A stretch of DNA of 64,000 nt, taken from NCBI GenBank assembly GCA_934525675.1, contig CAKSZH010000001.1, positions 138,405 through 202,404 on the forward strand, given 5' to 3'. Positions 452 through 63,787 of the stretch are shown in pieces. A program made the position numbers and the translations under genes. The notes below the pieces were generated by a model that worked only from the letters and a program-made list of their open reading frames with translations, was not told where the DNA came from and searched no databases. The stretch's first letter is position 1. Each line of letters opens with the position of its first letter. This DNA is from an uncultured Eubacteriales bacterium (GTDB taxonomy: Bacteria; Bacillota; Clostridia; Oscillospirales; CAG-272).

Positions 452-541
452 AGTGTGATTGGCGTGTCAATCCTTTCCGCGAAGACCTTTTGCGGCGACA
501 AACGGAATTCCGCAAAGAGTTCAGGAAAGGAAGGGATCCCT

Positions 542-1105
542 ATGGCAACCTATACAAAGCAGGGCGTTGACGTGGAAACGCTTCGCGGCACCGAAACCGA
601 AAAGAATCTGCACACGGCGCTGAGCGGGGAATCGCAGGCGTATCTCCGGTACAAATGGTTTGAAGCCAAAGCGAAAAGCGACGGGTATGTGGAGATTGCC
701 CGCATTTTTCAGGAGACGGCGGAGAACGAAAAAGAGCACGCGGAGATCTGGTTCCGCTATCTCGGCGGCTGGAGTGCGACCGAGCGCAACCTGGACGCCG
801 CGGCGGGCGGCGAGCATTTCGAGTGGGCGACCATGTACAAGGAATTTGAGGAGACCGCCAGGAAAGAGGGCTTTGACACCATCGCAGGACTGTTTTCCCG
901 CGTTGCTTCCATTGAGAAAATGCACGAGGAACGCTATGTGAAGTACCTTGACGAGGTGCGGCGCGGCGACAGCTTCCGGTCGGATACGGAAACAAAATGG
1001 ATCTGTCTCAACTGCGGGTACGTCGTGACCGGCAAAGAACCGCCCGCGATCTGCCCGGTCTGCTCTCACCCCGAAGGGTATTTTGCAAGGCAAGAACGAT
1101 CATAA
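542..1105 (+). CDS. rbr: rubrerythrin
   Basis: Starts at ATG 542 (MATYTKQG). It has an N-terminal diiron ferritin-like region (ENEKEHAEIW, EKMHEERY) and a C-terminal rubredoxin-type CLNCGY...CPVCSHP motif. Confidence 0.9.
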   Translation: MATYTKQGVDVETLRGTETEKNLHTALSGESQAYLRYKWFEAKAKSDGYVEIARIFQETAENEKEHAEIWFRYLGGWSATERNLDAAAGGEHFEWATMYKEFEETARKEGFDTIAGLFSRVASIEKMHEERYVKYLDEVRRGDSFRSDTETKWICLNCGYVVTGKEPPAICPVCSHPEGYFARQERS

Positions 1106-6357: not shown

Positions 6358-6395
6358 AAAACAGGAACCGCCGCAGGCGGTTCCTGTTTTCTGTT
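6358..6395. terminator. terminator downstream of the esterase gene (reads on both strands)
   Basis: ACAGGAACCGCC (6361-6372) pairs with GGCGGTTCCTGT (6376-6387). The plus strand has a T-run after the stem. The minus strand has a shorter one (TTTCG). Confidence 0.7.
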
Positions 6396-6455
6396 CTTTG
6401 ATTTACACCACATTCTCCGTTCGGAGTTTTTGTGACGGATCTCCCTGCGTTCTCC

Positions 6456-7166
6456 TTACGCAATCGGGCGCGGGAAGGACAGATCGTCGCGCTTCTGCTC
6501 GAGAAGCCAGTCAATGACCGTCGTGTACCAGTACGCGTCATCCCAGGAGCAGTGCCCGACATTGTTGAAGATGGTGAAACGGACGTTCCCGCCGAAATTC
6601 CGGGCGGAATTGACCATCTGATAAGACATTTCAACCGGCACGGTGTCGTCCTTGTCGCCGTGGAACGCCCAGACCGGCGTCTTGGCAAGATTGCCCGCTC
6701 TCCAGGGGAATCCGCCGCCGCAGATCGGCGCCAGTCCCGCAAAAAATTCGGGATAGGTAATCCCCAGTTCCCATGTTCCGAATCCGCCCATCGAAAGCCC
6801 GGTCGCTGTGATACGATGCATGTCGACGTTGTATTCGGCAGCGACCTTGTCGATCAGCTCCTTCAGGGTGAAAATGATATTGTTCCACACCATGTCCTCG
6901 GGACAGCGGGGGCAGAGAATGATCGCGGGAATGTCCTTTGCATCACAGGCAACAATACTGCTGAGTCCGATGCAGTGAACAGTGGTCAGATCCTTCATGC
7001 CGCCGCGCTCGCCCGCACCGTGCAGAAAGACAATCAGGGGGAGCTTTTCTTTCTTCCAGTCGAGCTTCTTCGGCAGGAAAAGTTCGTAGGCAATGCCGGG
7101 AATATAGCCGTTTTTGGGGGAAACGAACAGATCGGATACGACGTGATAGAGCTTTGTGTCGTCCAT
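6456..7166 (-). CDS. alpha/beta hydrolase (carboxylesterase / prolyl-oligopeptidase-like)
   Basis: Nucleophile elbow GLSMGG, FLHGAGERG, and HGDKDDTVP with a downstream His. RBS AAGGAGA precedes ATG 7166. Confidence 0.8.
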   Translation of the reverse strand: MDDTKLYHVVSDLFVSPKNGYIPGIAYELFLPKKLDWKKEKLPLIVFLHGAGERGGMKDLTTVHCIGLSSIVACDAKDIPAIILCPRCPEDMVWNNIIFTLKELIDKVAAEYNVDMHRITATGLSMGGFGTWELGITYPEFFAGLAPICGGGFPWRAGNLAKTPVWAFHGDKDDTVPVEMSYQMVNSARNFGGNVRFTIFNNVGHCSWDDAYWYTTVIDWLLEQKRDDLSFPRPIA

Positions 7167-15400: not shown

Positions 15401-18400
15401 TTAAAAACCGCCCTTGACTGCAACGGGGCAGGCGTCGGCAAGCAAACAGAATTTGCAGGATTTTGCGGACGGGGTCTTGCTTGCGTCGCCGGAAAACAGG
15501 CGATCCGCCGAGGAGAGCAGAGAATCCCCGATCTCGTCGCCGAGCCGGTCGAAATCGGCGCTTTCCATGGCGTTTCCGGAATAGGTGCCGTCCTTTTTCT
15601 CTGTGACCCCGCAAAGGAACGCGCTGTTCATCTCATCGTTCATGGCATGGAGCAGTTCGGGGTCCATAACGACAAGTCCGCTGCGTTCGGGGCGGGGGAC
15701 CTGTCCCTCGCGGTTCATGTACAGGTAAAACGCGCCTGCGGGGAGCAGTTCCGCCCCCTCTGGCAGATCCCCGAACCACGCGGAGTCCTTGCCGCGGCAG
15801 AGCGTGAAGAGGTAGAGAAGCAGCTGCAGGTCGCGCCCCTCCTTTACGTCCTTCATGGAAAACGTGTGGTTTCCGGACTTGTAATCCACCACGCGCAGAT
15901 AGATCTGCCCCTCGCGGCGGAACACGTCCACGCGGTCCACCGTGCCGCCGAGGCGCAGTTTCTTACCTGCGTTTCTGCCGGACGCAATGGTCAGGTCAAG
16001 CGGCGGAATGTCCGCGTCGCCGTCGCCGATTTTCTTTTCGAAAAACGCGGGAACAAACTCCGAATGACGGAGCTCCTCCGTGACGCTTGCCGCCATGAGC
16101 CGCGCGGCGGCAAGGTATCTGCGGAAAAGGTGGGTGTGAAGCTCGTCCGGTGATGCGTCCAGCTCCGGGTAACTCTCCCGGATGCAGTCGCGGGCAGCCT
16201 GTGCCACACGCCGCTCTCTTTCTGCGTCGTCCGGAAGACGGAAGATCCCGTCCTCTCCGATACAACCGCGCAGGTAGTGCTCGAGAACAAAGTGCAGGAA
16301 GTTGCCCGCGTCAAGACTGCCGAACACCGCCGGCTGTGCGAGCCGGAGACGCATGATATAGGTCGACCAGTAGCTGTGCGGGCAGGAGTTGAAGCGTTGC
16401 AGGTTGGTCGGCGAGAAGCGGAGCGTGTTTCCGAGAATGCCGTCCGCAAGCTCCGGGGAAACCGTGTATCCGGCAGATTGCGGGTGGCTGACGGCGGGAG
16501 CCAGCTTGTATTCCGTGACGCCGAGGTAGGGAAAAAGATACCTGACCCGCGCAAACGCGATGGAGGGCGTAAGTGCTTTTCCGTCCGCCGCGGCGGTGGG
16601 CGCCGACAGGATGAGCTTTTCCTTCGGCTTGGTGAAGGCTCTGCGGATGTAATACAGCTCGTTTGCGGACATTTTATCCCTGCGGGTGCCGAAGCGTACT
16701 CCGAGCTCGTCGAGCTTTGCTTTTTCCGCGTCGCCGAGCAGTCCCGCGGATTTCACGGGCGCGGGGAAAGCCCCCTCGGTCAGTCCGAGCACCAGTGCCG
16801 CCCGGAGGTTTTCCACGCGGAGCGTGTCCGCCGCGCCGATGATGACGCAGTCCTGAATTTCCGGAACTGCGCCGATGTCGGAGGCGGATAGCAGGAGCGA
16901 GATGGCAGAAGTGAATTCCTCGGTGTTCATTTCGGCGTCGGGGAGAACGTCCGCAAGGCGCGTGAGTGCGCCGACCACTGCATCAAACAGGCGCACCGTG
17001 TCGCCCGCCTCGCGGATCTCACCGAGTGACAGCTCGGTCTCCGCCAGCGAAAGCAGACGGTCGGTCAGTCCCGCTTCCAGAAGATAGTCGTAAAGCACCG
17101 CGCATTTGTTCGCGAGTGTTCCGGCGGCGCGCAGTCCCGTCCCCAGCTTTTCCAGAGGGGGGATCAGCGTCGCACGGACGCGGTTTGCGCTCTCGAGAAT
17201 TTCTTTCCCGCGCTTGGTAAGGCGCGTGGTATATCCGTCGGGATTGCGGTTCCAGACCGGTTCCGTAAAGGTCTTTCCGGTGATGTTCCAGACTCCGCAG
17301 TATTCTTCAAACAGGTCAAGATCGCGTTCTCCGAGTCCCGTCAGACCGGTTTTGGCAAGCGTCATCACGTCCTCGCGCCGAAAACCTCTGCCTGCCGCAC
17401 GGAGGGAGGACAGGATAAATCTTGCGGGCGGTTCGGAGGAAAGCTCGCGCTTCTCGGACAGAAAGCAGGGAATTCCGTAACGGTCAAACACGCTGTCGAT
17501 GAGCCCCCGGTAATCCTCTGTGTCCCGGACGATTACTGCGATCTCGCCGAAGTGCATCCCCTCCTCGTGAAGCGCGAGGATACGCTTCGCGGCAAGTTCC
17601 GCCTCCGCGTAAGGTCCTGCAGGGGCGTACAATTCAATTGCGCCCCGTTTGTCTTCTGCCGGAAGCGGAAGATTTTCTCTGCGGAGTCCCATGTCAAAGA
17701 GATGCTTGCCGATAAGATGAAGTTCTTCCGATTGCGTGCGGTGGTTACCCTTCAGCAGTTCGGTTTCACAGCCGCCCGCAAGCTCGTTTCCCATCGCAAA
17801 CAGCCGCGCGGCGGTCGTGGCAACGGCAAGCGTTTCGGGGGAGTGGTCGGAAAGCCCCATGCAGTCCAGCGTTACCGTAACGTGTTCCGCCTGCCGCAGC
17901 ATTTCGCCGAGCACCGCGTATTCGCCCTCGGTGAAGTCGGTGAAGGAATCGAGATAGACCCGGCTTCCGCGGAAAAAGGGACAGGTACGGAGTACCCGCC
18001 CGAGGCGGAAGAGCCGGTCGGCGCTGTTGCCGCCGAAGCGCTCGGTCACCAGCCCGTCATAAGCGGCGGTGATGAGCGAAAGGTCCAGGAGCTTTGTCCG
18101 GAGCGGGTCGTCCTCCGGCAGTTTTCCCGCTGCCCCCTCAAGCGCCGCAGGAGATACTCCTCCCGCGTGCATTTCGTCGGAGACAGACAGCATCAGAGCG
18201 GTCAGGCTCTGGTCGGGACGGTCGCCCGGACGGTATTCGGAGAGGAGCGGGGAAAGCTCTCTTAGGTTCTGCCACATGAAAAGGGTACGGAGCCCTTCAT
18301 CCGGATCCGTTTCCGTCAGCCCGCCCGTCTCGCGGAATACAAGCTCCGCAAGCCGCCGGAAGCCGACGATCTTCAGAATTCTTCCCGCGGAACCGGGGAG

Positions 18401-18550
18401 AACGGGGAGCAGTTCCTGTTCGTAGAAATACACCTGCTGTTCGGGAACGATGAGAAACGCACGCTGTCCCGCTTCCATGTCGCGGCGGATGCGTTCCCGG
18501 AGCACGTAGGATTTACCGCTCCCGGACGGACCGCAGATCAGCTTCAGCAT
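15401..18550 (-). CDS. addB: helicase-exonuclease AddAB, subunit B
   Basis: GPSGSGKS P-loop at the N-terminus. C-terminal nuclease (VVDYKSG) and a Cys cluster (CKFCLLADACP). Lies immediately upstream of addA. Confidence 0.9.
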   Translation of the reverse strand: MLKLICGPSGSGKSYVLRERIRRDMEAGQRAFLIVPEQQVYFYEQELLPVLPGSAGRILKIVGFRRLAELVFRETGGLTETDPDEGLRTLFMWQNLRELSPLLSEYRPGDRPDQSLTALMLSVSDEMHAGGVSPAALEGAAGKLPEDDPLRTKLLDLSLITAAYDGLVTERFGGNSADRLFRLGRVLRTCPFFRGSRVYLDSFTDFTEGEYAVLGEMLRQAEHVTVTLDCMGLSDHSPETLAVATTAARLFAMGNELAGGCETELLKGNHRTQSEELHLIGKHLFDMGLRRENLPLPAEDKRGAIELYAPAGPYAEAELAAKRILALHEEGMHFGEIAVIVRDTEDYRGLIDSVFDRYGIPCFLSEKRELSSEPPARFILSSLRAAGRGFRREDVMTLAKTGLTGLGERDLDLFEEYCGVWNITGKTFTEPVWNRNPDGYTTRLTKRGKEILESANRVRATLIPPLEKLGTGLRAAGTLANKCAVLYDYLLEAGLTDRLLSLAETELSLGEIREAGDTVRLFDAVVGALTRLADVLPDAEMNTEEFTSAISLLLSASDIGAVPEIQDCVIIGAADTLRVENLRAALVLGLTEGAFPAPVKSAGLLGDAEKAKLDELGVRFGTRRDKMSANELYYIRRAFTKPKEKLILSAPTAAADGKALTPSIAFARVRYLFPYLGVTEYKLAPAVSHPQSAGYTVSPELADGILGNTLRFSPTNLQRFNSCPHSYWSTYIMRLRLAQPAVFGSLDAGNFLHFVLEHYLRGCIGEDGIFRLPDDAERERRVAQAARDCIRESYPELDASPDELHTHLFRRYLAAARLMAASVTEELRHSEFVPAFFEKKIGDGDADIPPLDLTIASGRNAGKKLRLGGTVDRVDVFRREGQIYLRVVDYKSGNHTFSMKDVKEGRDLQLLLYLFTLCRGKDSAWFGDLPEGAELLPAGAFYLYMNREGQVPRPERSGLVVMDPELLHAMNDEMNSAFLCGVTEKKDGTYSGNAMESADFDRLGDEIGDSLLSSADRLFSGDASKTPSAKSCKFCLLADACPVAVKGGF

Positions 18551-55648: not shown

Positions 55649-56326
55649 ATGGGATTCGGTCTCTTGTTTTTCGGCGTTCTCATCGCCGAGGTGCCGTTTC
55701 TCGGCGCATGGTTTCCCACCTGCTTTCTCGGGTATCTTCTGATCCTTGCGGCGGTGGGAAAACTGCGGATGTACGAGAGCACGTACCATTTCGCCTTCAT
55801 CCCGCTTATCCCCCTGATCCTGTTTTCGGGGTTTCAGATCGGCGCGGCGATCTTCGGCGTGACAAAGCTTGGTGTCATCTATCCCGGCGGCACGGCGGGA
55901 ACGGTTCTGAACGCCGCATTTCAGGTCTTCCGGATGTTGCTCCGTGAGACGCTGTTCTTCGGAACGGCAGAGCTTGCCGCATCCGTGAAATTGCCGAAGC
56001 TCCGCCTCCGCGCGGTACAGAATATGGTTGCCTACGGAATCTGGTTTTTGTTTGCCGTGCTCCAATTGACCGGAATCTTCAAAGGCGTTCCCGGTTTTGA
56101 TGCCGCGCTCATGATTGTGTATCTGCTTGTGACCGTATTTGCGCTCGTGCTGTACGCTTCCTCGTATCGCCGGATCTGCCCGGAGGGGGAAGAGGATGCC
56201 CCGCGCCGTAAATCGCGCTTTGCTTTTGTCAACCGCTTTTATGAAAAGCTCGACAAAAAAGAGGAGCAGGCGGCAAAGGAATCCGCAAAACTTTACCTCG
56301 AACATAAAAAAGGAAAGAAAAAATAA
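55649..56326 (+). CDS. polytopic membrane protein, unknown function
   Basis: The ATG lies 1 nt after the secA stop. About 6 TM helices and a Lys-rich C-terminal tail. The N-terminal FLGYLLILAAVGKL resembles the next protein. Confidence 0.7.
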   Translation: MGFGLLFFGVLIAEVPFLGAWFPTCFLGYLLILAAVGKLRMYESTYHFAFIPLIPLILFSGFQIGAAIFGVTKLGVIYPGGTAGTVLNAAFQVFRMLLRETLFFGTAELAASVKLPKLRLRAVQNMVAYGIWFLFAVLQLTGIFKGVPGFDAALMIVYLLVTVFALVLYASSYRRICPEGEEDAPRRKSRFAFVNRFYEKLDKKEEQAAKESAKLYLEHKKGKKK

Positions 56327-56512
56327 GCCGGTAAAACGGCTCCGCAAGACTTTTTCTGAAAGGACAAATATAAAGGGACTGTGGCAACGTGTCCCCCGGT
56401 TTTTCCGCGACGGAGAAGAGCAAGGAACAATCAGGCGGCAACGTGTCCGCAGGATTTCCTCAAACATCGCCCACCTGTCCGTTTGGGACGGAACTATGAA
56501 AGGAGAGACCCA

Positions 56513-57925
56513 ATGCAGAAAATCAAAAAGAATCTCGGAATCGGGCAGATCCTTCTCTCCGCCGTGTTTCTGTTCAATCCGGAGGTCAGCGTCATTGACC
56601 CGCTCCCCGATTTCATCGGTTATCTGCTTCTCGTAACGGGGCTGACCTGTCTTGCCGATCTCAATGAAACGCTTGCCACGGCGCGGAAACTGTTTCTCAT
56701 ACTCGCATGGGTTTCCGGCGCACAGCTTCTGTCGGTTCTGTTTCTGTTCGGCGCCGGCGCGTCGGCAGACCGGGCAATGAATTTTCTTCTGTTCCCGTTC
56801 TGCTTCGGCATTCTGTCAACCCTGCTTGCAATCCCGGCGTTCAAATTCCTGTTTGACGGTCTTTTGTATCTCGGCACCCGCCATAACGGAACGGCGGTTT
56901 TCCGGGGCGCCGGGAAAAAGGAGCCGGTTCCGGGGCAGTTCGCCGCAGTCGATCACCTGCGTTTTCTTACATACGTATTCCTGATCTTCAAAACGGTGAT
57001 GACGGTCCTGCCGGAGTTTGCTGTACTGTCCGCGTACGGACAGGATCTGAATGCGGTCAACTGGTCGCGGTTTCTTCCCCTGTTCCGTATGGGTGCGATC
57101 ATCGTTGTCCTTCCGTTCGGGATCGTCTGGCTCTGCCGGTATATCGGATTTTTCCGTGCGGTCAGGAACGACGGGGAGTTTATCGGAACCCTGACGGAAA
57201 AATATCGCACCGAGGTTTTGACGAAGGAATCCGTGTTTGTTCTCCGGACGGTCTTCCGCGCATTTCTTCTGCTCGGCGCCGCGGCGGTATTCAGCATGGA
57301 CTTTTATCTGAACCGGTATAATGTCCTGCCGGATTTCATTGCGGGAATCTGCATTTTTCTCGCAGTCCTGTTTTTGCGGAAATATCTCAAAAAACCGAAT
57401 TTCCTGCTTGCAGGCAGTGCCGTGTACACGGTTGTGGCCGCCGCGGAATGGATTCTTTATACCCTCTTTGTCCGCTCCAGCCGGTACCGGGACATTTACG
57501 TGGATATCCGCCTGATGGCGCCCGACGCAGTGTCGGGACATTACCTGACATCCGTCGTTTACGGCGTATCCGAAGTGCTGTTTCTCTGTCTCTTTGTGCT
57601 TCTTGTCATACAGCTTCTCGGTTTTGTCCGGAATTATACCTGCTTCCCGGTCAATCCGTCGCTTCACGATTCCGAAGCGCGGCTCCGCCTGGAGCAGAAG
57701 CCGCTTCGCGTCGGACTGTATATCGCGGTGCTGCTTGCGGCGGTTTGCGCGGGGCTTGCGGTCTGCCTCAGAATTTTCATTCCGTATGCGACGGTCAAAC
57801 GTTTTTCTTTCAGTGAACTTCTGACGCTCCTCTCCGCGATCGCGTCGATTGCGTGGGCAGCGGAATTCTGCGTGACGCTTGCGGCAATCCGTGCGCAGGT
57901 GAAAAATAAATACTGGCTGGACTGA
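56513..57925 (+). CDS. polytopic membrane protein with internally duplicated LPDFI(G/A) module, unknown function
   Basis: ATG 56513 with RBS AAAGGAG. IDPLPDFIGYLLLVTGL at the N-terminus and YNVLPDFIAGICIFLAVL mid-protein. Confidence 0.7.
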   Translation: MQKIKKNLGIGQILLSAVFLFNPEVSVIDPLPDFIGYLLLVTGLTCLADLNETLATARKLFLILAWVSGAQLLSVLFLFGAGASADRAMNFLLFPFCFGILSTLLAIPAFKFLFDGLLYLGTRHNGTAVFRGAGKKEPVPGQFAAVDHLRFLTYVFLIFKTVMTVLPEFAVLSAYGQDLNAVNWSRFLPLFRMGAIIVVLPFGIVWLCRYIGFFRAVRNDGEFIGTLTEKYRTEVLTKESVFVLRTVFRAFLLLGAAAVFSMDFYLNRYNVLPDFIAGICIFLAVLFLRKYLKKPNFLLAGSAVYTVVAAAEWILYTLFVRSSRYRDIYVDIRLMAPDAVSGHYLTSVVYGVSEVLFLCLFVLLVIQLLGFVRNYTCFPVNPSLHDSEARLRLEQKPLRVGLYIAVLLAAVCAGLAVCLRIFIPYATVKRFSFSELLTLLSAIASIAWAAEFCVTLAAIRAQVKNKYWLD

Positions 57926-58009
57926 CCGGATTCTGTTCCGCTCCTGAATAGACAGGCGGCGCACGGTGCATACTTATGCTGAAATCCAAATCAGAAAGGA
58001 ATTCAGAAT

Positions 58010-58210
58010 ATGCAGAACAACAATCAGAACAACCAGAACCAGAATAACCAGAACCAGCAGAATTGCCGGAATCAACAGAACAACCAGAACCAGAATCAGA
58101 ACAATCAGAATCAGAACAATCAGAATCAGAACAATCAGAATCAGCAGAACCGCAACCGGCAGAATTTCCAGAATAACCAGAATCATCAGAACAACCAGAA
58201 CCAGGACTGA
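58010..58210 (+). CDS. 66-aa Asn/Gln-only peptide (33 N, 25 Q, 8 other residues)
   Basis: AGAAAGGAA RBS 9 nt before the ATG. 24 of 25 Gln codons are CAG, consistent with GC-rich third positions in this frame. TGA stop, with a terminator about 70 nt downstream. Coding status is unproven. Confidence 0.45.
   Translation: MQNNNQNNQNQNNQNQQNCRNQQNNQNQNQNNQNQNNQNQNNQNQQNRNRQNFQNNQNHQNNQNQD
58013..58207. repeat. CAGAAY hexanucleotide microsatellite including 3.6 copies of a 15-bp unit
   Basis: CAGAATCAGAACAAT repeats at 58091-58144. The whole stretch is built from CAG/AAC/AAT triplets and is clearly AT-richer than its flanks. Confidence 0.9.
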
Positions 58211-58282
58211 TTTTTACTCACCGGAGCGCCCGCAGAAGGGAACGCGGAAGGGATTGGTGCCACCGGCACGAAAAATTCCGGG

Positions 58283-58306
58283 AACGCCCCTCTGCGGGCG
58301 TTTTTT
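58283..58306 (+). terminator. intrinsic terminator after the N/Q ORF
   Basis: AACGCCC (58283-58289) pairs with GGGCGTT (58296-58302), followed by a T run. Confidence 0.65.
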
Positions 58307-58319
58307 CACAATTATTTCA

Positions 58320-58348
58320 TTGACATCAGCCCGCGCGTATGATAGGAT
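58320..58348 (+). promoter_or_regulatory. putative promoter of the ABC-DUF1854-ABC operon
   Basis: TTGACA (58320-58325), 17-nt spacer ending in TGa, then TAGGAT (58343-58348). Confidence 0.5.
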
Positions 58349-58420: not shown

Positions 58421-60844
58421 ATGGTCCGTAAAAACGGACGGAGGACTGCTTTGGCAACAGAATTTGATGTGATTCCGGAGAGAATCTGGCAGGAACTGAA
58501 ACGTCGGGGGATTGCCCGCGGGTCGGTTCTTTTTGCCATGTATGCCGACCGGAACGAAAAGGAGGAGCGGGCGGAGAACTATCTCTTTCTGACGGACGAT
58601 CGGATCGCCGTTCTGACCCTCCCGTACAGCGGCGGGGACGGACAATCACGCCGCCGGAAAACGAGGAAAACGTCCGCCTCGGCTCGCCCGGATATGGGCG
58701 ACAACGCAAACGGAACGGAGTCGCCTGCTGCCCGGACCGCGCACAATGATTCTTCTACAGCCTCGGAAACAGACGGTTCCGCGCCGTCCCCGGCGACCCT
58801 GACCGAATACCCGAGGGAGGGACTGGCCCGTCTTTCTGTGGAAGAGCGGACGTCCACCTCTCGCCTGGTCGCGCTGGCATCGGACGGTACCTGCATTCTG
58901 CTTGCGACCATGACCAATTTCTGCCGTACCTCCGCGCACCTGTTTGAGCGTTACGGCAACCGCGCACTCGCAGGGGAGAAGGACATTTCCGTGTCGCCGG
59001 ACGACCTGCCGGGTGCCAACTGCTGCCCCAAATGTGGACTGCGCTATCCAGACGCGGGACAGAAAATCTGCCCGCGGTGCATGGCAAAAACACACTCCAT
59101 CAACCGCATGAACTTCTTCCTTAAGAAGTATCGCATCCAGCTTGCCGTCGCGTTTCTGACGCTTTGCCTGTCGGTTGCGTTCAGTGTTCTGGGACCTTAT
59201 TTTTCTTCCGGCTTTTTCTATGACAAGGTGCTGACCCCGGACGGCGGGTTCTTCGGGCAGATCGGCTTGGTCCTCGGTCTCGTGATCGCCACCCGTGCGC
59301 TCATGTACGTGTCCATCATGTTCAATAACTACGTGACCTCCCGTATCACGGTCAAAATGGTCTACGACCTCCGGAAAACCATTTTCGGCGTGATCGAACG
59401 CCTGTCTTTGCGTTTCTTCACCGGACGGCATACGGGCGGGCTGATGAATCAGGTCAACGACGACGCCGACGCGATCTATGAGTATTACTGCAACAGCCTG
59501 CCGTATTTTCTGATGTGCCTGGTCCAGCTCGTGATCGTGGTGGTACTGCTTTTCGTGATCCAGCCCGTCATGGCGGCGTTTGCCTTTGCCATGATCCCGG
59601 TCTATGTGCTGCTGGTCATGTGGCAGCACCGGCGCAGCCGCCGGCTCCGCGCGGCACAGTATAACCGTTCTTCGGAAATGACCGCCCACCTGTCCGACGC
59701 CCTGACCGGTGCACGCGTAGTCAAAGCGTTTGCAAGAGAAGACCAGGAACTGGCGCGTTTCCGCCGCAACAACGAGCGCCTCGGCGAAAGCGAGCGCCGC
59801 CTCGGTATGTTTCACAGTTTCCTTACCCCTCTGACGGCGACCGTCCTGCTTGCCGGCAATATCGTGACGCTCGGTTACGGCGGGTACCTGGTCATCCGGG
59901 GGAGACTGACCTATGGACAGCTTCTGACGTTTATTTCTTACGTGAACATTGCGTTTACTCCGCTCAGCTTTTTCGTCAGTTTCTTTCAGTGGCGGGCATA
60001 TTATGCCAACGCCGCCGCGAGACTGTTCGAGATCATGGATGCGCATCCGGAGATCACCGAGAAGCCTGACGCCATGCATCCGGATATCCGCGGAGCGGTG
60101 GAATTCTCCCACGTGGATTTTTCTTATGATAAAAACCGCCGTGTTGTGGAGGACGTTTCCTTTTCGGTCCCCGCCGGGGAAACGCTCGGCATTGTCGGGC
60201 ACAGCGGCGCGGGGAAGAGTACCATTGCCAACCTGCTCATGCGCCTGTATGAGACCGACCGCGGAGAGATCCGGATCGACGGCATCAATGTCCGCGATCT
60301 TGCGTTTGACCGCCTGTACGGCAGTATCGCCATTGTGTCGCAGGAAACCTACATATTTGTCGGGAGCGTGCTGGACAATATCCGTTATGCGCGTCCCGAA
60401 GCTACCAATGAAGAGGTCATCGCCGCGGCGCGGATCGCCGGCGCACATGATTTCATCATGCGGATGCCGGACGGCTACGAGACCCGTATCGGACTTGGCA
60501 AAAAGGAGTTGTCCGGCGGGGAAAAACAGCGGATTTCCATTGCCCGCGCAATCCTGCGGAACCCGAAGATTCTGATTCTGGACGAGGCGACCGCCGCGAT
60601 GGATACCGAAACCGAGCGCATGATCCAGAGCGCCCTCTCCCGTCTGACCGAGGGTAAAACGACCATCATCATCGCGCACCGCCTGTCCACGCTCCGCGAC
60701 GCGGATCAGTTGATTGTCATTGAATCCGGCAGGGTGGTGGAACGCGGAACGCACGCGACACTGCTCGCAAAAGGGGGCGGCACCTACCATAAGCTCTACA
60801 CGCTTCAGGAAGAAGCGCTCCGCAGTGCGGGGATCGCGGAATAA
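58421..60844 (+). CDS. ABC exporter half-transporter (TMD+NBD) with ~235-aa N-terminal cytoplasmic extension (PH-like fold? plus zinc ribbon)
   Basis: Zn ribbon CCPKCGLRYPDAGQKICPRC just before TM1. Six-TM exporter domain. GHSGAGKST, LSGGEKQR, ILILDEATAAMD and IIAHRLST motifs. Start is uncertain: ATG 58421 is preferred over the TTG at 58370. Confidence 0.85.
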   Translation: MVRKNGRRTALATEFDVIPERIWQELKRRGIARGSVLFAMYADRNEKEERAENYLFLTDDRIAVLTLPYSGGDGQSRRRKTRKTSASARPDMGDNANGTESPAARTAHNDSSTASETDGSAPSPATLTEYPREGLARLSVEERTSTSRLVALASDGTCILLATMTNFCRTSAHLFERYGNRALAGEKDISVSPDDLPGANCCPKCGLRYPDAGQKICPRCMAKTHSINRMNFFLKKYRIQLAVAFLTLCLSVAFSVLGPYFSSGFFYDKVLTPDGGFFGQIGLVLGLVIATRALMYVSIMFNNYVTSRITVKMVYDLRKTIFGVIERLSLRFFTGRHTGGLMNQVNDDADAIYEYYCNSLPYFLMCLVQLVIVVVLLFVIQPVMAAFAFAMIPVYVLLVMWQHRRSRRLRAAQYNRSSEMTAHLSDALTGARVVKAFAREDQELARFRRNNERLGESERRLGMFHSFLTPLTATVLLAGNIVTLGYGGYLVIRGRLTYGQLLTFISYVNIAFTPLSFFVSFFQWRAYYANAAARLFEIMDAHPEITEKPDAMHPDIRGAVEFSHVDFSYDKNRRVVEDVSFSVPAGETLGIVGHSGAGKSTIANLLMRLYETDRGEIRIDGINVRDLAFDRLYGSIAIVSQETYIFVGSVLDNIRYARPEATNEEVIAAARIAGAHDFIMRMPDGYETRIGLGKKELSGGEKQRISIARAILRNPKILILDEATAAMDTETERMIQSALSRLTEGKTTIIIAHRLSTLRDADQLIVIESGRVVERGTHATLLAKGGGTYHKLYTLQEEALRSAGIAE

Positions 60845-60856
60845 GGAGGGATCGAC

Positions 60857-61405
60857 ATGAACGAAATGAAGAACAACCAAAGCGTCGTGCCGGAAAACGG
60901 GATGCAGTCCTTCCGGGAGGTGGCAACGGAAAAGTATCTTTGCCCGGGGGAGGTCACCTTCCGGGAAAAGGACGGTTTTCTGACCATTGAGGCGGACGGG
61001 AAAACGTATCCGCGGGTGCTTCTGCGCCGGGCGTTTCCGTTTGAACTCCCGGACGAATATATCACGGTGACGGATGGGGAAGGACACGAGATCGGCATGA
61101 TCCGTTCTCTCTCCGACCTTGACGCGGAAACGGGGAAACTGCTCCGGGAAGAGCTTGCCCGCGCGTATTACATGCCGGAGGTGACGAAGATCCTTTCCAT
61201 GAAGGAACGCTTCGGCTTTTCCTACTGGCGGGTCGAAACCGGGGACGGAGAGACGGAATTCACTCTTCAGGATACCTATCGCAGTATTCAGCATGTTACC
61301 CCGACCCACCTGATCTTTCTGGATGTCAGCGGAAACCGGTTTGAGATCCCGGATACCGAGAAACTCGACCGGGGAAGTCACCGGAAAATCGAACTGTACC
61401 TGTAA
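60857..61405 (+). CDS. DUF1854 family protein
   Basis: RBS AAGGAGG. FREKDGFLTIEADGKTYPRVLLRRAFPF...ITVTDGEGHEIGMI...YYMPEVTKILSMKERFGFSYWRVETGDGE...DVSGNRFEIPD matches my memory of DUF1854, which occurs beside or fused to ABC transporters. Confidence 0.8.
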   Translation: MNEMKNNQSVVPENGMQSFREVATEKYLCPGEVTFREKDGFLTIEADGKTYPRVLLRRAFPFELPDEYITVTDGEGHEIGMIRSLSDLDAETGKLLREELARAYYMPEVTKILSMKERFGFSYWRVETGDGETEFTLQDTYRSIQHVTPTHLIFLDVSGNRFEIPDTEKLDRGSHRKIELYL

Positions 61406-61492
61406 TTCCGCGGGGAAGACAACCGGAACCCGTGACTGCGTTGGTTCCGGTTCCTTCCGGAAGACTGTTTTTATGATGATCGGAGGTCAGCT

Positions 61493-63787
61493 TTGAAACG
61501 ACCGAATGAACCGTCCGCCGTGCGGACGCTGAATGAAAAATACCGGGAGCGGTACCGGGACCTGTTTCGTGCGGACCCGCCGGAAGAGGTACTGCTCCTT
61601 GTTGCCTTTAACCTGGACCGCAAAATTCCGGGGAAACGGGTGGACGGCTTGTGCGTATTCACCGCCGGCGACTGCCACGTTTATACCGACGGAGTTCTGA
61701 CCGATACATTCCGGATGGAGTGCGGCGGCAGATGCCGCATGGTTGCCGAGATCGGAAGCGTGTTCGCGGAATATCTGTCCCCCGACGGAACGCCGCACCT
61801 GATCCTGCGCGCGGATAACCGCATGAGGCGGGAGATCGGCGCGGGAATGAAATTCGTGGATCGGGCGGTTGAGTTCGGAGAGAAACTTTCTCCCTTTGAC
61901 GCGCCGCGCGTCACGGAAGAGGTCTGCCCCAAGTGCCAAAGTCCGTACCCACCCGGCTCCCATGTCTGTCCCGCCTGTACGGGAAAGGGAAAGACGCTGA
62001 AGCGCCTGCTCGGAATGGCGGGAAAGTCGCGCGGCTATATCGTTGCGGCAATCGCTTTCTTCTTTCTGATCTCGGCGGTCAGCCTGCTTGCGCCGTATCT
62101 CAACCGCCGGCTCATCGACGGGTATGTGCAGGCACCGGCGGGCACGGTACAGGACCGCGTGTTCTGGATCGGGTTTGCAACCGTCATTGTCACGCTTGCC
62201 CTGGTACAGATTTTTCAAAAGTTCTGCACCATGCTCCGCGGGTTCTTCCTGGTGCGCGCGGGCAACGGTGTGATTATGTCCTTGCGCGAAAAAGTGTTCG
62301 GGCAGATCGAGCGGATGTCGGTCTCCCGCATTTCAAAACGCACCTCGGGGGAACTGCTGAACCGCGTCAAGAGCGACACGGCGCAGATCCAGGATTTTCT
62401 GACGGGACAGCTTCCGAATGTGCTGGAGCAGGTGTTTCTGTTCCTTGCCGTGGTCGTCATCCTGCTTGTGACCGACCCGCGACTGACGCTTCTGGTACTT
62501 CTCCCTGCCGTGGTTGTCATGTTTTCTTTCCGCCTGTTCTGGCGGTTCATGTCGGGGCTGTTCCGGAAATCCTGGTCGCTTTACTCCCGGATGTCCACGG
62601 TTCTGCACGATATTTTTTCGGGTATCCGCGTGGTCAAGGCGTTCGGTATGGAGAAAAAGGAGTCAGAGCGGTACGATCGGGCAAGCCGCGATGTCTCCGC
62701 GAACGATTACCGCATCGAGCGATTCTGGGCGTTTTTCAACCCGCTTCTGAACTTCCTGATGGGTGCGGGAGAATTCATTCTGCTTTATTACGTCGGCAAC
62801 CGGATTCTCGCGGGAAGCATGACCATCGGTGAGATGTCCCAGTTTTCCGCTTATGTTGCCCTCATCTACGGCCCGCTCAACCAGTTTGCCAATCTCCCGC
62901 GCCAGATCATGCGGGTGACCACATCGGTCAATAAAGTCTTTGAGATTGTGGACGAACAGCCGGAACTGACCGACGCGGAGCATCCGAAGGACGTGAAACT
63001 GGATGGACACATCGACATTGAGAACGTTTCCTTCGGATACGACGAGGGCGGCGAGGTGCTCCGGAATATTTCCTTACATATCGAACCCGGAGAATTCATC
63101 GGCATTGTGGGACGTTCCGGCGTGGGAAAGTCCACGCTCATCAACCTCATCATGCGGATGTATGACCCGGAATCCGGCAGGATCCTCGCGTCCGGTACGG
63201 ACCTGCGGGAAATCTCCCAGCATTCGCTCCGTTCGCAGATCGGCGTGGTGCTTCAGGAAACTTTTCTGTTCTCCGGCACGGTTTATGAAAACATTGCCTA
63301 CGCAAAGCCCGACGCGACCCCCGATGAGATCATTGCCGCCGCGCGGCTTGCGGGTGCGCACGACTTCATCATGAAGCTGTCGGACGGCTATGACACCAAG
63401 ATCGGCGAGCACGGCTATACGCTCTCCGGTGGCGAGCGCCAGCGGGTGGCGATCACAAGGGCGTTGCTCCGTGACCCCAAGATTCTGATTCTTGACGAGG
63501 CGACCGCGTCTCTGGATACGGAAACCGAAAAGCAGATTCAGGAGGCGCTTCACCGGCTTTCCGAGAGCCGGACCACCATCGCCATTGCACACCGCTTATC
63601 CACGCTTCGCGGCGCAACCCGGCTGATTGTGCTGGACGGCGGCAGGATTGCGGAGACCGGAACGCATGACGAACTGATCGAAAAGCACGGGATTTATTAC
63701 GGGCTGGTCATGGCGCAAAGGGAAATGTCGCGTATGGCAAAACCCGAGGCGGGACTCCCCGGCCCGGCAACCGCCGCTGCGGAGTAA
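61493..63787 (+). CDS. ABC exporter half-transporter (TMD+NBD) with ~175-aa N-terminal extension and zinc ribbon
   Basis: TTG start with GGAGG 6 nt upstream. CPKCQSPYPPGSHVCPAC before TM1. GRSGVGKST, LSGGERQR, ILILDEATASLD and AIAHRLST motifs. Confidence 0.88.
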   Translation: MKRPNEPSAVRTLNEKYRERYRDLFRADPPEEVLLLVAFNLDRKIPGKRVDGLCVFTAGDCHVYTDGVLTDTFRMECGGRCRMVAEIGSVFAEYLSPDGTPHLILRADNRMRREIGAGMKFVDRAVEFGEKLSPFDAPRVTEEVCPKCQSPYPPGSHVCPACTGKGKTLKRLLGMAGKSRGYIVAAIAFFFLISAVSLLAPYLNRRLIDGYVQAPAGTVQDRVFWIGFATVIVTLALVQIFQKFCTMLRGFFLVRAGNGVIMSLREKVFGQIERMSVSRISKRTSGELLNRVKSDTAQIQDFLTGQLPNVLEQVFLFLAVVVILLVTDPRLTLLVLLPAVVVMFSFRLFWRFMSGLFRKSWSLYSRMSTVLHDIFSGIRVVKAFGMEKKESERYDRASRDVSANDYRIERFWAFFNPLLNFLMGAGEFILLYYVGNRILAGSMTIGEMSQFSAYVALIYGPLNQFANLPRQIMRVTTSVNKVFEIVDEQPELTDAEHPKDVKLDGHIDIENVSFGYDEGGEVLRNISLHIEPGEFIGIVGRSGVGKSTLINLIMRMYDPESGRILASGTDLREISQHSLRSQIGVVLQETFLFSGTVYENIAYAKPDATPDEIIAAARLAGAHDFIMKLSDGYDTKIGEHGYTLSGGERQRVAITRALLRDPKILILDEATASLDTETEKQIQEALHRLSESRTTIAIAHRLSTLRGATRLIVLDGGRIAETGTHDELIEKHGIYYGLVMAQREMSRMAKPEAGLPGPATAAAE

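Follow-up and report, generated by a model that had tools for sequence, protein, structure and literature searches.

The subject of this analysis is a small gene in a 64,000-nucleotide stretch of DNA (the window) from an uncultured Eubacteriales bacterium, positions 138,405 to 202,404 of contig CAKSZH010000001.1. Its protein consists almost wholly of asparagine and glutamine, and the gene is called the N/Q gene here. The gene order around it is TspO, SpoU (on the minus strand), SecA, a 225-residue membrane protein (M225), a 470-residue membrane protein (M470), the N/Q open reading frame (ORF), and then a cassette encoding an ATP-binding cassette (ABC) protein, a DUF1854 protein and a second ABC protein. 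We found that the N/Q ORF is a real protein-coding gene of an unannotated family and that it has a promoter of the type used in the forespore, and we lean towards the reading that its product is a small protein of the spore core. The features of the gene are listed below.

57946..57950, plus strand: -35 box GAATA of a forespore-type (sigma F/G-like) promoter, a strict motif match
57969..57975, plus strand: -10 box CATACTT of the same promoter, after an N18 spacer; predicted transcription start near 57982
57993..58001, plus strand: Shine-Dalgarno (SD) site AGAAAGGAA, 8 nt before the ATG, read directly from the sequence
58010..58210, plus strand: N/Q coding sequence including the TGA stop; ATG start, 66 codons, 66 amino acids (aa), 8.1 kDa
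58223..58306, plus strand: intrinsic terminator, located by folding; T6 at 58301-58306

The N/Q gene and its signals

The original prediction for this DNA described a 66-codon ORF with a given peptide and a TGA stop, and rereading the sequence confirmed these and showed an ATG start. The peptide contains 33 N, 25 Q and 3 R, with one each of M, C, F, H and D. It is 88% Asn/Gln, has a calculated isoelectric point (pI) of 10.3 and a grand average of hydropathy (GRAVY) of -3.3, and carries 2.05 nitrogen atoms per residue. A signal peptide is impossible because the peptide has no hydrophobic stretch at all, as the prediction had also said. The claim that the ORF is richer in AT than its flanks agrees with the measured GC content, which is 0.405 at 58000-58199, compared with 0.53-0.60 upstream and 0.56-0.66 downstream.

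Codon use turned out to be less unusual than had been proposed, and the repeat more degenerate. The Gln codons of the ORF are 24 CAG and 1 CAA, and the Asn codons are 19 AAC and 14 AAT. The CAG codons had been taken as a special GC-rich choice, but the SecA genes of the same genomes are nearly as biased: CAG makes up 92% of the Gln codons in N/Q genes vs 87% in SecA genes, and AAC makes up 63% of the Asn codons vs 59%. The CAG bias is the ordinary codon preference of the genome, perhaps slightly sharpened. Tandem Repeats Finder gave periods of 6, 9, 15, 18, 21, 30 and 36 nt for the ORF, each a multiple of 3, so the repeat units do preserve the frame. The copies match at only 66-90%, and the repeat is therefore an old degenerate coding repeat, not a fresh or pure microsatellite.

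An open N/Q frame is not in itself evidence of a gene, because base composition alone keeps other frames open. Of 46 relatives, 45 have an open codon-aligned antisense frame and 28 have an open +2 frame. The case for a real gene rests on conservation and signals, not on the openness of the frame.

The conservation reaches from identical copies to the loci with a distant M470 that are described below. At the shortest distance, the window peptide occurs as an identical called gene on at least 10 metagenome contigs, and a Hadza gut contig is identical to the window across a 13,991-base overlap. Further away, N/Q ORFs of 56, 58 and 50 aa occupy this position in relatives with 80% and 61% identity in M470, and these relatives share the upstream motif cTGAATA-N17-CATACTT, the SD and a terminator. 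Two of the relatives, L004 and L055 (loci are numbered from L001, the window's own contig), have identical flanks, and their ORFs differ by one in-frame 6-nt insertion or deletion and three substitutions, all three of which are synonymous in the N/Q frame. The frame is kept while the length of the repeat varies, which is the pattern that the original prediction had suggested looking for. The translation signal is also widespread, with an SD-like site at -18 to -4 in 104 of 114 family members vs 14% of random positions. In the window the SD is present as had been claimed, with a spacing of 8 nt and not 9.

A different possibility is that the repeat is not translated in the N/Q frame, and is instead a neutral microsatellite, an RNA element or the template of an antisense toxin. 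The toxin would be encoded by the following ORF.

57974-58186, minus strand: antisense Leu/Ile/Val-rich ORF, a putative small hydrophobic toxin

The frequent openness of this antisense frame fits such a toxin, as does the fact that several substitutions which alter the N/Q peptide (Q to K, N to H or D) leave the antisense product unchanged or conservatively changed, but the openness is forced by a base composition with almost no T on the sense strand. Among 109 members, an antisense start that spans the repeat is found in 77 and an ATG start in 29, an SD-like site is found in 10, as often as expected at random, and antisense promoters score no higher than background (median 2.7). The sense strand, besides its SD sites, has an in-frame ATG at the start of every repeat and a stop just after it, and the promoter and the terminator are oriented with it. 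Non-repetitive hydrophilic C-terminal tails also remain in frame. Rfam, searched over 55-60 kb of the window at a permissive threshold, gave zero matches. Taken in all three forms, an untranslated repeat seems very unlikely.

The terminator that had been predicted at 58283-58306 is real, and is the 3' half of a longer hairpin. The fold of 58200-58320 has an energy of -49 kcal/mol (z = -4.1) and consists of a long hairpin, 58223-58304, followed by T6. In the core stem, 58227-58236 pairs with 58291-58300, or with the nearer arm 58283-58289. A simple consensus scanner did not have a terminator at 58283-58306 on its list. Among orthologues, 30 of 46 have a terminator-like hairpin and a T run after the stop. 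When the window was compared with the 80%-identity relative L004 (~2180-2260), the distal terminator arm was found to be conserved; in the outer stem, a single compensatory change replaces A-U by G-C, and one pair is G-U. Selection may therefore act on the extended 3' structure and not on the short terminator stem alone, for example for transcript stability.

A short ORF built from two kinds of amino acid and followed by a terminator could also be a regulatory leader peptide, in which stalling on Asn and Gln codons would sense tRNA charging, and thereby amide-nitrogen status, and would regulate transcription past the terminator into downstream genes. In many Firmicutes the GatCAB amidotransferase route serves to charge the tRNAs for Asn and for Gln alike, which would suit this role. 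The geometry does not: 13 nt separate the stop from the hairpin and about 70 nt separate it from the terminator core, and the fold gives a single long hairpin past the stop with no alternative antiterminator pairing that overlaps the ORF. The ORFs of 19-72 codons far exceed known leader peptides, and what they would regulate is not constant, since the downstream genes differ by lineage, the N/Q ORF is the last gene in the spoVA-linked members described below, and the ABC cassette of the window has its own promoter. A leader peptide is extremely unlikely.

A family of small N/Q-rich proteins

Relatives of the N/Q gene were collected in two ways. An alignment search with M470 homologues gave 80 loci from gut metagenome-assembled genomes (MAGs) of Oscillospiraceae, Eubacteriales and Clostridia, in which M470 is 27-37% identical. 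Two degenerate DNA pattern scans of a genome collection, with at most 120 stretches per scan and hence counts that are samples and not totals, gave at least 70 further distinct small N/Q ORFs of 27-72 aa. The family comprises at least 114 distinct peptides of 19-72 aa, about 80% N+Q, in about 120 genome loci.

The sampled carriers are all Firmicutes, nearly all Clostridia, and mostly Oscillospirales gut MAGs. The pattern-found carriers include Faecousia, Oscillospiraceae, Ruminococcus, Acutalibacteraceae, Pelethomonas, Acetatifactor and Clostridium sp. CAG:273; they are labelled Clostridia or unclassified, with the single exception of one Erysipelotrichaceae MAG. Two cultured carriers, Eubacterium sp. 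OM08-24 and Acetatifactor aquisgranensis DSM 110981, are among the pattern matches listed. In the first scan, where each match was inspected, the matches from other phyla sit in long ordinary proteins or outside ORFs.

The composition is much the same throughout. The pooled 114 peptides are about 48-54% N, 28-31% Q, 5-7% K, 4% S and 2-4% R, and the N+Q content of 79-82% makes them Q/N-dominated. Hydrophobic residues make up 1.8%, the median pI is 10.3 and the GRAVY is -3.2.

The original prediction had noted that no such bacterial family was described, and the searches made here agree. The window peptide and five other members had zero matches in Pfam and NCBIfam at E <= 0.1 to 1, an exact protein-cluster look-up of ten family peptides in a collection of 15 billion proteins found none present, and literature searches found no description of N/Q-rich small spore proteins. 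A peptide homology search gave 295 candidates that share words with the query and 0 at E <= 0.001, a result for which composition filtering is the likely cause.

A forespore-type promoter

The promoter of the N/Q gene is of the sigma F/G type. The motif G[ACT]ATA-N17/18-[CA]ATA[CA]T[TAG] has a single strict match on both strands of the 64-kb window, and this match is the one at 57946-57975, directly in front of the gene. The motif is conserved in the close relatives L003 and L004, in which the spacer has diverged. Across the family, strict matches are found in 26 of 45 distinct upstream regions vs 49 matches in 1.74 Mb, both strands counted.

The assignment was made with a sigma F/G matrix derived from 41 sigma F and sigma G promoters that had been mapped by experiment in C. 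difficile (Saujet et al. 2013, PMC3789822, Table S6). Because this matrix was built independently, circular reasoning from the family's own motif was avoided. Its blocks, tG[AT]ATAa and [Ac]A[TA]A[AC]TA, 16-19 nt apart, match the family motif. Compared with GC-matched control windows from the same loci, 37 of the 45 family regions score above the 95th percentile and 26 above the 99th (Mann-Whitney p = 1e-25).

A three-way classifier was then used to compare the sigma F/G model with sigma E and sigma K models. In four-fold cross-validation it miscalled 3 of 70 mother-cell promoters as F/G and recovered 31 of 41 F/G promoters. It called F/G for 43 of 45 secA-linked family promoters and for 29 of 37 promoters from other contexts, and it gave the window promoter 10.26 for F/G, 5.14 for sigma E and 3.28 for sigma K.

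Genes for small acid-soluble proteins (SASPs) of the alpha/beta type were sought in L001-L085 as a same-genome promoter control, and none was found. The use of spoVAC as a positive control was dropped, since the gene ahead of spoVAD in these genomes is not spoVAC, and the region upstream of spoVAD served instead. Scoring by the IUPAC consensus GHATR-N-CAHWHTA was also dropped as too permissive, with 45% of random 130-nt windows reaching 10/12. Literature searches for a written sigma G consensus yielded nothing of use.

Two recurring genomic settings

Members of the family recur in two settings. The first, to which the window belongs, is linked to secA: an N/Q-rich ORF lies behind M470 in 48 of 84 loci, on the same strand and 13-165 nt (mostly about 60-110 nt) past the M470 stop. 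These ORFs are 19-70 aa long and start with MQNN, MNNN, MDNN or MENN. The SpoU/SecA/M225/M470 synteny is found at nearly all M470 loci.

The second setting is linked to spoVA. Among the 70 pattern-found ORFs, 18 lie 49-79 nt past spoVAE on the same strand, and two more probable spoVAE-linked N/Q ORFs are cut off by contig ends. Pfam identified the neighbours as SpoVAD (1e-138) and SpoVAC_SpoVAEB (2e-38). In L101, the one locus whose intergenic region was read, there is no terminator between spoVAE and the N/Q ORF, and a canonical terminator lies directly after the ORF. The promoter scores of the spoVA-linked copies themselves are low (median 7.3), and these copies are therefore read as the last gene of a spoVAD-spoVAE operon.

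The spoVA operon is expressed in the forespore. Upstream of spoVAD, the terminator of the preceding gene is followed by a CATA[AC]TA box in 12 of 18 regions, where 0.012 would be expected per region, and this -10 box is of the type seen in the window (CATACTT). In C. difficile, the promoter of spoVAC is listed among those of sigma G (PMC3789822, Table S6), and the operon encodes the dipicolinate channel (PMC8953710).

The adjacent ABC/DUF1854/ABC cassette

Downstream of the N/Q gene in the window lie the following features.

58320..58348, plus strand: separate sigma-70-type promoter of the cassette, TTGACA-17-TAGGAT with an upstream TG; 10/12 consensus positions
58421-63787, plus strand: ABC/DUF1854/ABC cassette

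The original prediction linked the N/Q gene to this cassette, and suggested that the peptide might be cargo of the exporter and that an N/Q ORF should be conserved beside DUF1854 cassettes. The N/Q gene does adjoin the cassette in the window and in the close relatives L003, L004/L005 and L055, and also in L213 and L274. Another attraction of the peptide as cargo, or as a cargo precursor, is that the best NCBIfam matches of the cassette are the "cyanophycin metabolism-associated" ABC and DUF1854 models, cyanophycin being another nitrogen-rich polymer; these matches are far below the cut-offs (483 and 524 bits for the ABC proteins vs 880, and 97 bits for DUF1854 vs 150).

The link did not hold up in several respects. 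The terminator of the N/Q gene and the separate promoter of the cassette, which is conserved in L003 and L004, stand between the two, and the N/Q promoter is of the forespore type. DUF1854 adjoins the N/Q ORF only in L001, L003, L055 and 2 of the 70 pattern-found loci, 5 of about 150 loci overall, whereas the constant neighbours are secA/M225/M470 or spoVAD/spoVAE. A search for loci of the DUF1854 protein gave one distant locus, L002, from another Oscillospiraceae MAG, where the cassette occurs without an N/Q ORF. The peptide has neither a leader nor a double-glycine motif, and the ABC proteins have only the Pfam domains ABC_membrane and ABC_tran, with no peptidase domain. It is very improbable that the peptide is cargo.

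In both ABC proteins the membrane domain is preceded by an N-terminal extension, about 140-230 aa long, that carries a CxxC...CxxC zinc-ribbon motif.

A candidate protein of the spore core

The N/Q protein is, with somewhat better than even confidence, a forespore-made small spore-core protein, a functional analogue but not a homologue of the gamma-type SASPs. Among the roles listed in the original prediction, a spore component and a nitrogen-rich peptide both fit the forespore-type promoter and the spoVA-linked sister genes, and exporter cargo does not. The sigma F/G-type RNA polymerase of the developing spore would transcribe the gene from the promoter at 57946-57975 as a monocistronic unit, translation would start at the ordinary SD and ATG, and the transcript would end at the hairpin 58223-58306. 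The product, a small, basic, fully hydrophilic and polymer-like chain of Asn and Gln, would be deposited in the spore core as a novel sort of small, soluble spore protein, a location that we infer because the promoter is of the forespore type and sister genes lie in the spoVAD-spoVAE operon. It would be stored in the dormant spore and broken down at germination, as SASPs are (PMC8953710), and the breakdown would free Asn and Gln, with about two nitrogen atoms per residue, for outgrowth.

A number of points weigh against this reading. The window promoter has a modest score of 8.99 on the F/G matrix, just above the 95th control percentile. The classifier called F/G for only 9 of the 18 spoVAD control promoters, because their -35 boxes are weak, and the C. 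difficile promoter models transfer imperfectly to the order of the window. The genes of the window at 31-55 kb are housekeeping genes only. Forespore expression of the window copy is predicted from its promoter and from its sister genes, and the secA-linked and spoVA-linked groups are too simple in sequence for their homology to be provable. A role as a nitrogen or amino-acid reserve is suggested by analogy, which is its sole basis. The N/Q peptides lack a cleavage motif of the GPR type, so breakdown at germination would need another protease.

The main rival keeps the same forespore and core setting but gives the protein a structural or protective role, as a hydrogen-bonded polar zipper, an amyloid-like or gel assembly, or a coat that binds nucleic acid by its net positive charge. 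Either form would help to keep the dehydrated core immobile and protected. Prion-like and polar-zipper sequences are likewise extremely rich in N/Q and nearly free of hydrophobic residues, and the sister genes share an operon with spoVAD and spoVAE, which encode the channel that loads dipicolinate and hence dehydrates the core. All 114 peptides have a net positive charge, from +1 to +5, which a pure nitrogen store would not need. The last residue is also biased: of the 70 pattern-found peptides, 42 end in R, 9 in F and 6 in Y (57/70 together). This pattern of charge and C-terminus could be a recognition or degradation signal. On the other side, length and sequence vary freely over 19-72 aa, which suits a role in bulk composition at least equally well, and the two roles are compatible, as known SASPs do both. 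We see a structural role as possible, if doubtful.

The spoVA-linked peptides typically end in ...NSR or ...NNR.

A further proposal, which we consider unlikely, is that the all-Q/N protein is loaded into the forespore with dipicolinate and forms a reversible gel or amyloid-like matrix, which would vitrify the core and double as a nitrogen store. At germination this hydrogen-bonded matrix would dissolve or be digested.

Comparison with known proteins

The closest parallel to the proposed spore-core protein is the gamma-type SASP of Bacillales, SspE, which is a hydrophilic, Gln/Asn-rich protein of about 84 aa with internal repeats, roughly 40% N+Q, expressed from a monocistronic, sigma G-dependent gene. 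The N/Q proteins are similarly small (19-72 aa), very hydrophilic and rich in Gln and Asn, with internal repeats, no signal peptide and a monocistronic gene. Judged by promoter, their expression would be of the sigma F/G type, and a spore-core location is presumed for both. The two differ in that Pfam and NCBIfam gave no sequence relationship, in that the N/Q peptides are about 80-88% N+Q, are net basic and lack GPR cleavage motifs, and in that the hosts are Clostridia, which are held to lack the gamma type. The window peptide has no Glu or Ala at all with which to form a GPR site (E-[FIY]-[AG]-S-E-like), and across the family Glu is 1-1.5% and Ala under 1%. Because there is neither a match to a family model nor a GPR motif, the N/Q protein is not a member of the gamma-type SASP family.

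The Erysipelotrichaceae MAG carries a 70-aa member (L168, 5541-5753, plus strand) with the repeats YRNESANEFNQ and YRNEFANDFNQ. These resemble the EFASE-type GPR sites of gamma-type SASPs, and L168 is the sole member with NEFANDF and NESANEF. L168 may be intermediate in form, or may be a genuine relative of the gamma-SASPs from outside Bacillales. A BLASTP comparison of the L168 peptide with an approximate SspE sequence was not significant (E = 0.46).

The alpha/beta-type SASPs (PF00269) share with the N/Q proteins small size, forespore-type expression (predicted for the N/Q proteins) and candidacy as abundant proteins of the spore core, and the net positive charge of the N/Q proteins would permit contact with nucleic acid. 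Unlike the low-complexity N/Q polymers, they are well conserved and form helices. A six-frame regular-expression scan of the window and L001-L085 with the PROSITE signatures K-x-E-[LIV]-A-x-[DE]-[LIVMF]-G-[LIVMF] and G-x-V-G-G-x-[LIVM]-x-[KR]-[KR]-[LIVM]-[LIVM] found no alpha/beta SASP, and the N/Q peptide has no Pfam match.

The minor sigma G-dependent proteins of Bacillus, SspH-SspP and Tlp, are hydrophilic, forespore-specific proteins of 34-71 aa that are encoded at scattered places in the genome and are mostly of unknown function. They resemble the N/Q family in being tiny and hydrophilic, but they have ordinary complexity and no N/Q bias, come from another host order, and showed no detected homology. 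Prion-like Q/N domains, such as those of yeast Sup35 N and Clostridium botulinum Rho, consist largely of Asn and Gln and have very few residues that are charged or hydrophobic. The N/Q peptides share the Asn/Gln-dominated composition; the prion-like domains are parts of larger proteins, whereas the N/Q protein is such a tract throughout and has a sporulation context.

Other features of the loci

The two membrane proteins upstream of the N/Q gene are as follows.

55649-56326, plus strand: M225, 225-aa membrane protein after secA
56504..57925, plus strand: M470, 470-aa polytopic membrane protein, the conserved upstream neighbour of the N/Q gene

M225 and M470 are a conserved pair of polytopic membrane proteins directly after secA in ~80 Clostridia genomes, and M225 starts 1 nt past the secA stop. 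No family was found for either in Pfam or NCBIfam. The N-terminus of M470 has an invariant IDxLPDFIGY-like motif. Its AlphaFold model is all-helical and confident (pLDDT 81), and Foldseek gave no fold match to this model in the PDB at E <= 0.001.

Some loci have no N/Q ORF and carry something else in the same slot. In L015 (~6395-6700), L018, L026, L064 and L074, and also in L017 and L040, this is another conserved small ORF, hydrophilic and about 63-66 aa long, with the pattern ...DNIFK..QPYLDS..GKWGRGKDDSP..YPxNNPLPY*, in which the asterisk is the stop. It has no Pfam or NCBIfam match, and in L015, L018, L026, L064 and L074 it is preceded by a G[AC]ATA-N17/18-CATACTT promoter. Another unannotated small protein of the forespore seems to occupy the slot here.

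In L057 (~6470-6690, plus strand) the slot holds a low-complexity hydrophilic ORF rich in Q/T/G/D, MQNNKPNKRRQNASDVQGNQQTQDTRETQGTQGTQ..., and in L066 (~6500-6650, plus strand) it holds a low-complexity ORF rich in S/Q/D/E behind a strict match to the forespore-type promoter. These two loci raise the thought that the selected property may be hydrophilic disorder rather than N/Q itself.

A conserved non-coding element follows M470 in L024 (6483-6748, plus strand), L012, L052, L061, L065 and L077. In L024, the one locus searched with Rfam, it is the large bacterial signal recognition particle (SRP) RNA (RF01854, 167 bits), so secA, the two membrane proteins and the SRP RNA form one cluster. A transfer-messenger RNA was considered as the identity of the element and rejected, since ARAGORN found none in any of the six loci.

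Elsewhere in the window, the best F/G score of all is that of TGAATAA-N17-CAATCCT at 446-476 on the plus strand, in front of a rubrerythrin gene.

455-1105, plus strand: rubrerythrin ORF (Pfam PF02915, PF21349)

Rubrerythrin is sigma G-dependent in C. difficile (PMC3789822), and the promoter hints that the genome of the window has a forespore regulon. For the window ORF at 15401-18547 on the minus strand, a record look-up gave no entry.

Significance

The N/Q genes have been invisible probably because the composition filters of HMMER reject them, and because their products offer few tryptic sites for proteomics and the ten that were looked up are absent from the 15-billion-protein collection. 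To our knowledge few natural proteins contain as much Asn and Gln as these peptides.

In the survival of spores and the restart of growth, small acid-soluble proteins play a central part. In the accepted picture, Clostridia have only the DNA-binding alpha/beta SASPs and lack a Gln/Asn-rich storage type, and the N/Q family, which is widespread, would change that picture. If the proposed spore-core role is true, the family would be a new candidate for an abundant protein in spores of the lineages that dominate among the spore formers of human and animal guts. Should the protein instead form a vitrifying matrix, it would be a bacterial use of prion-like chemistry for dormancy. The N/Q peptides are a clean natural test case for the behaviour of Q/N polymers in a nearly dry cytoplasm, and the cultured carriers Eubacterium sp. 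OM08-24 and Acetatifactor aquisgranensis DSM 110981 make the question directly testable.

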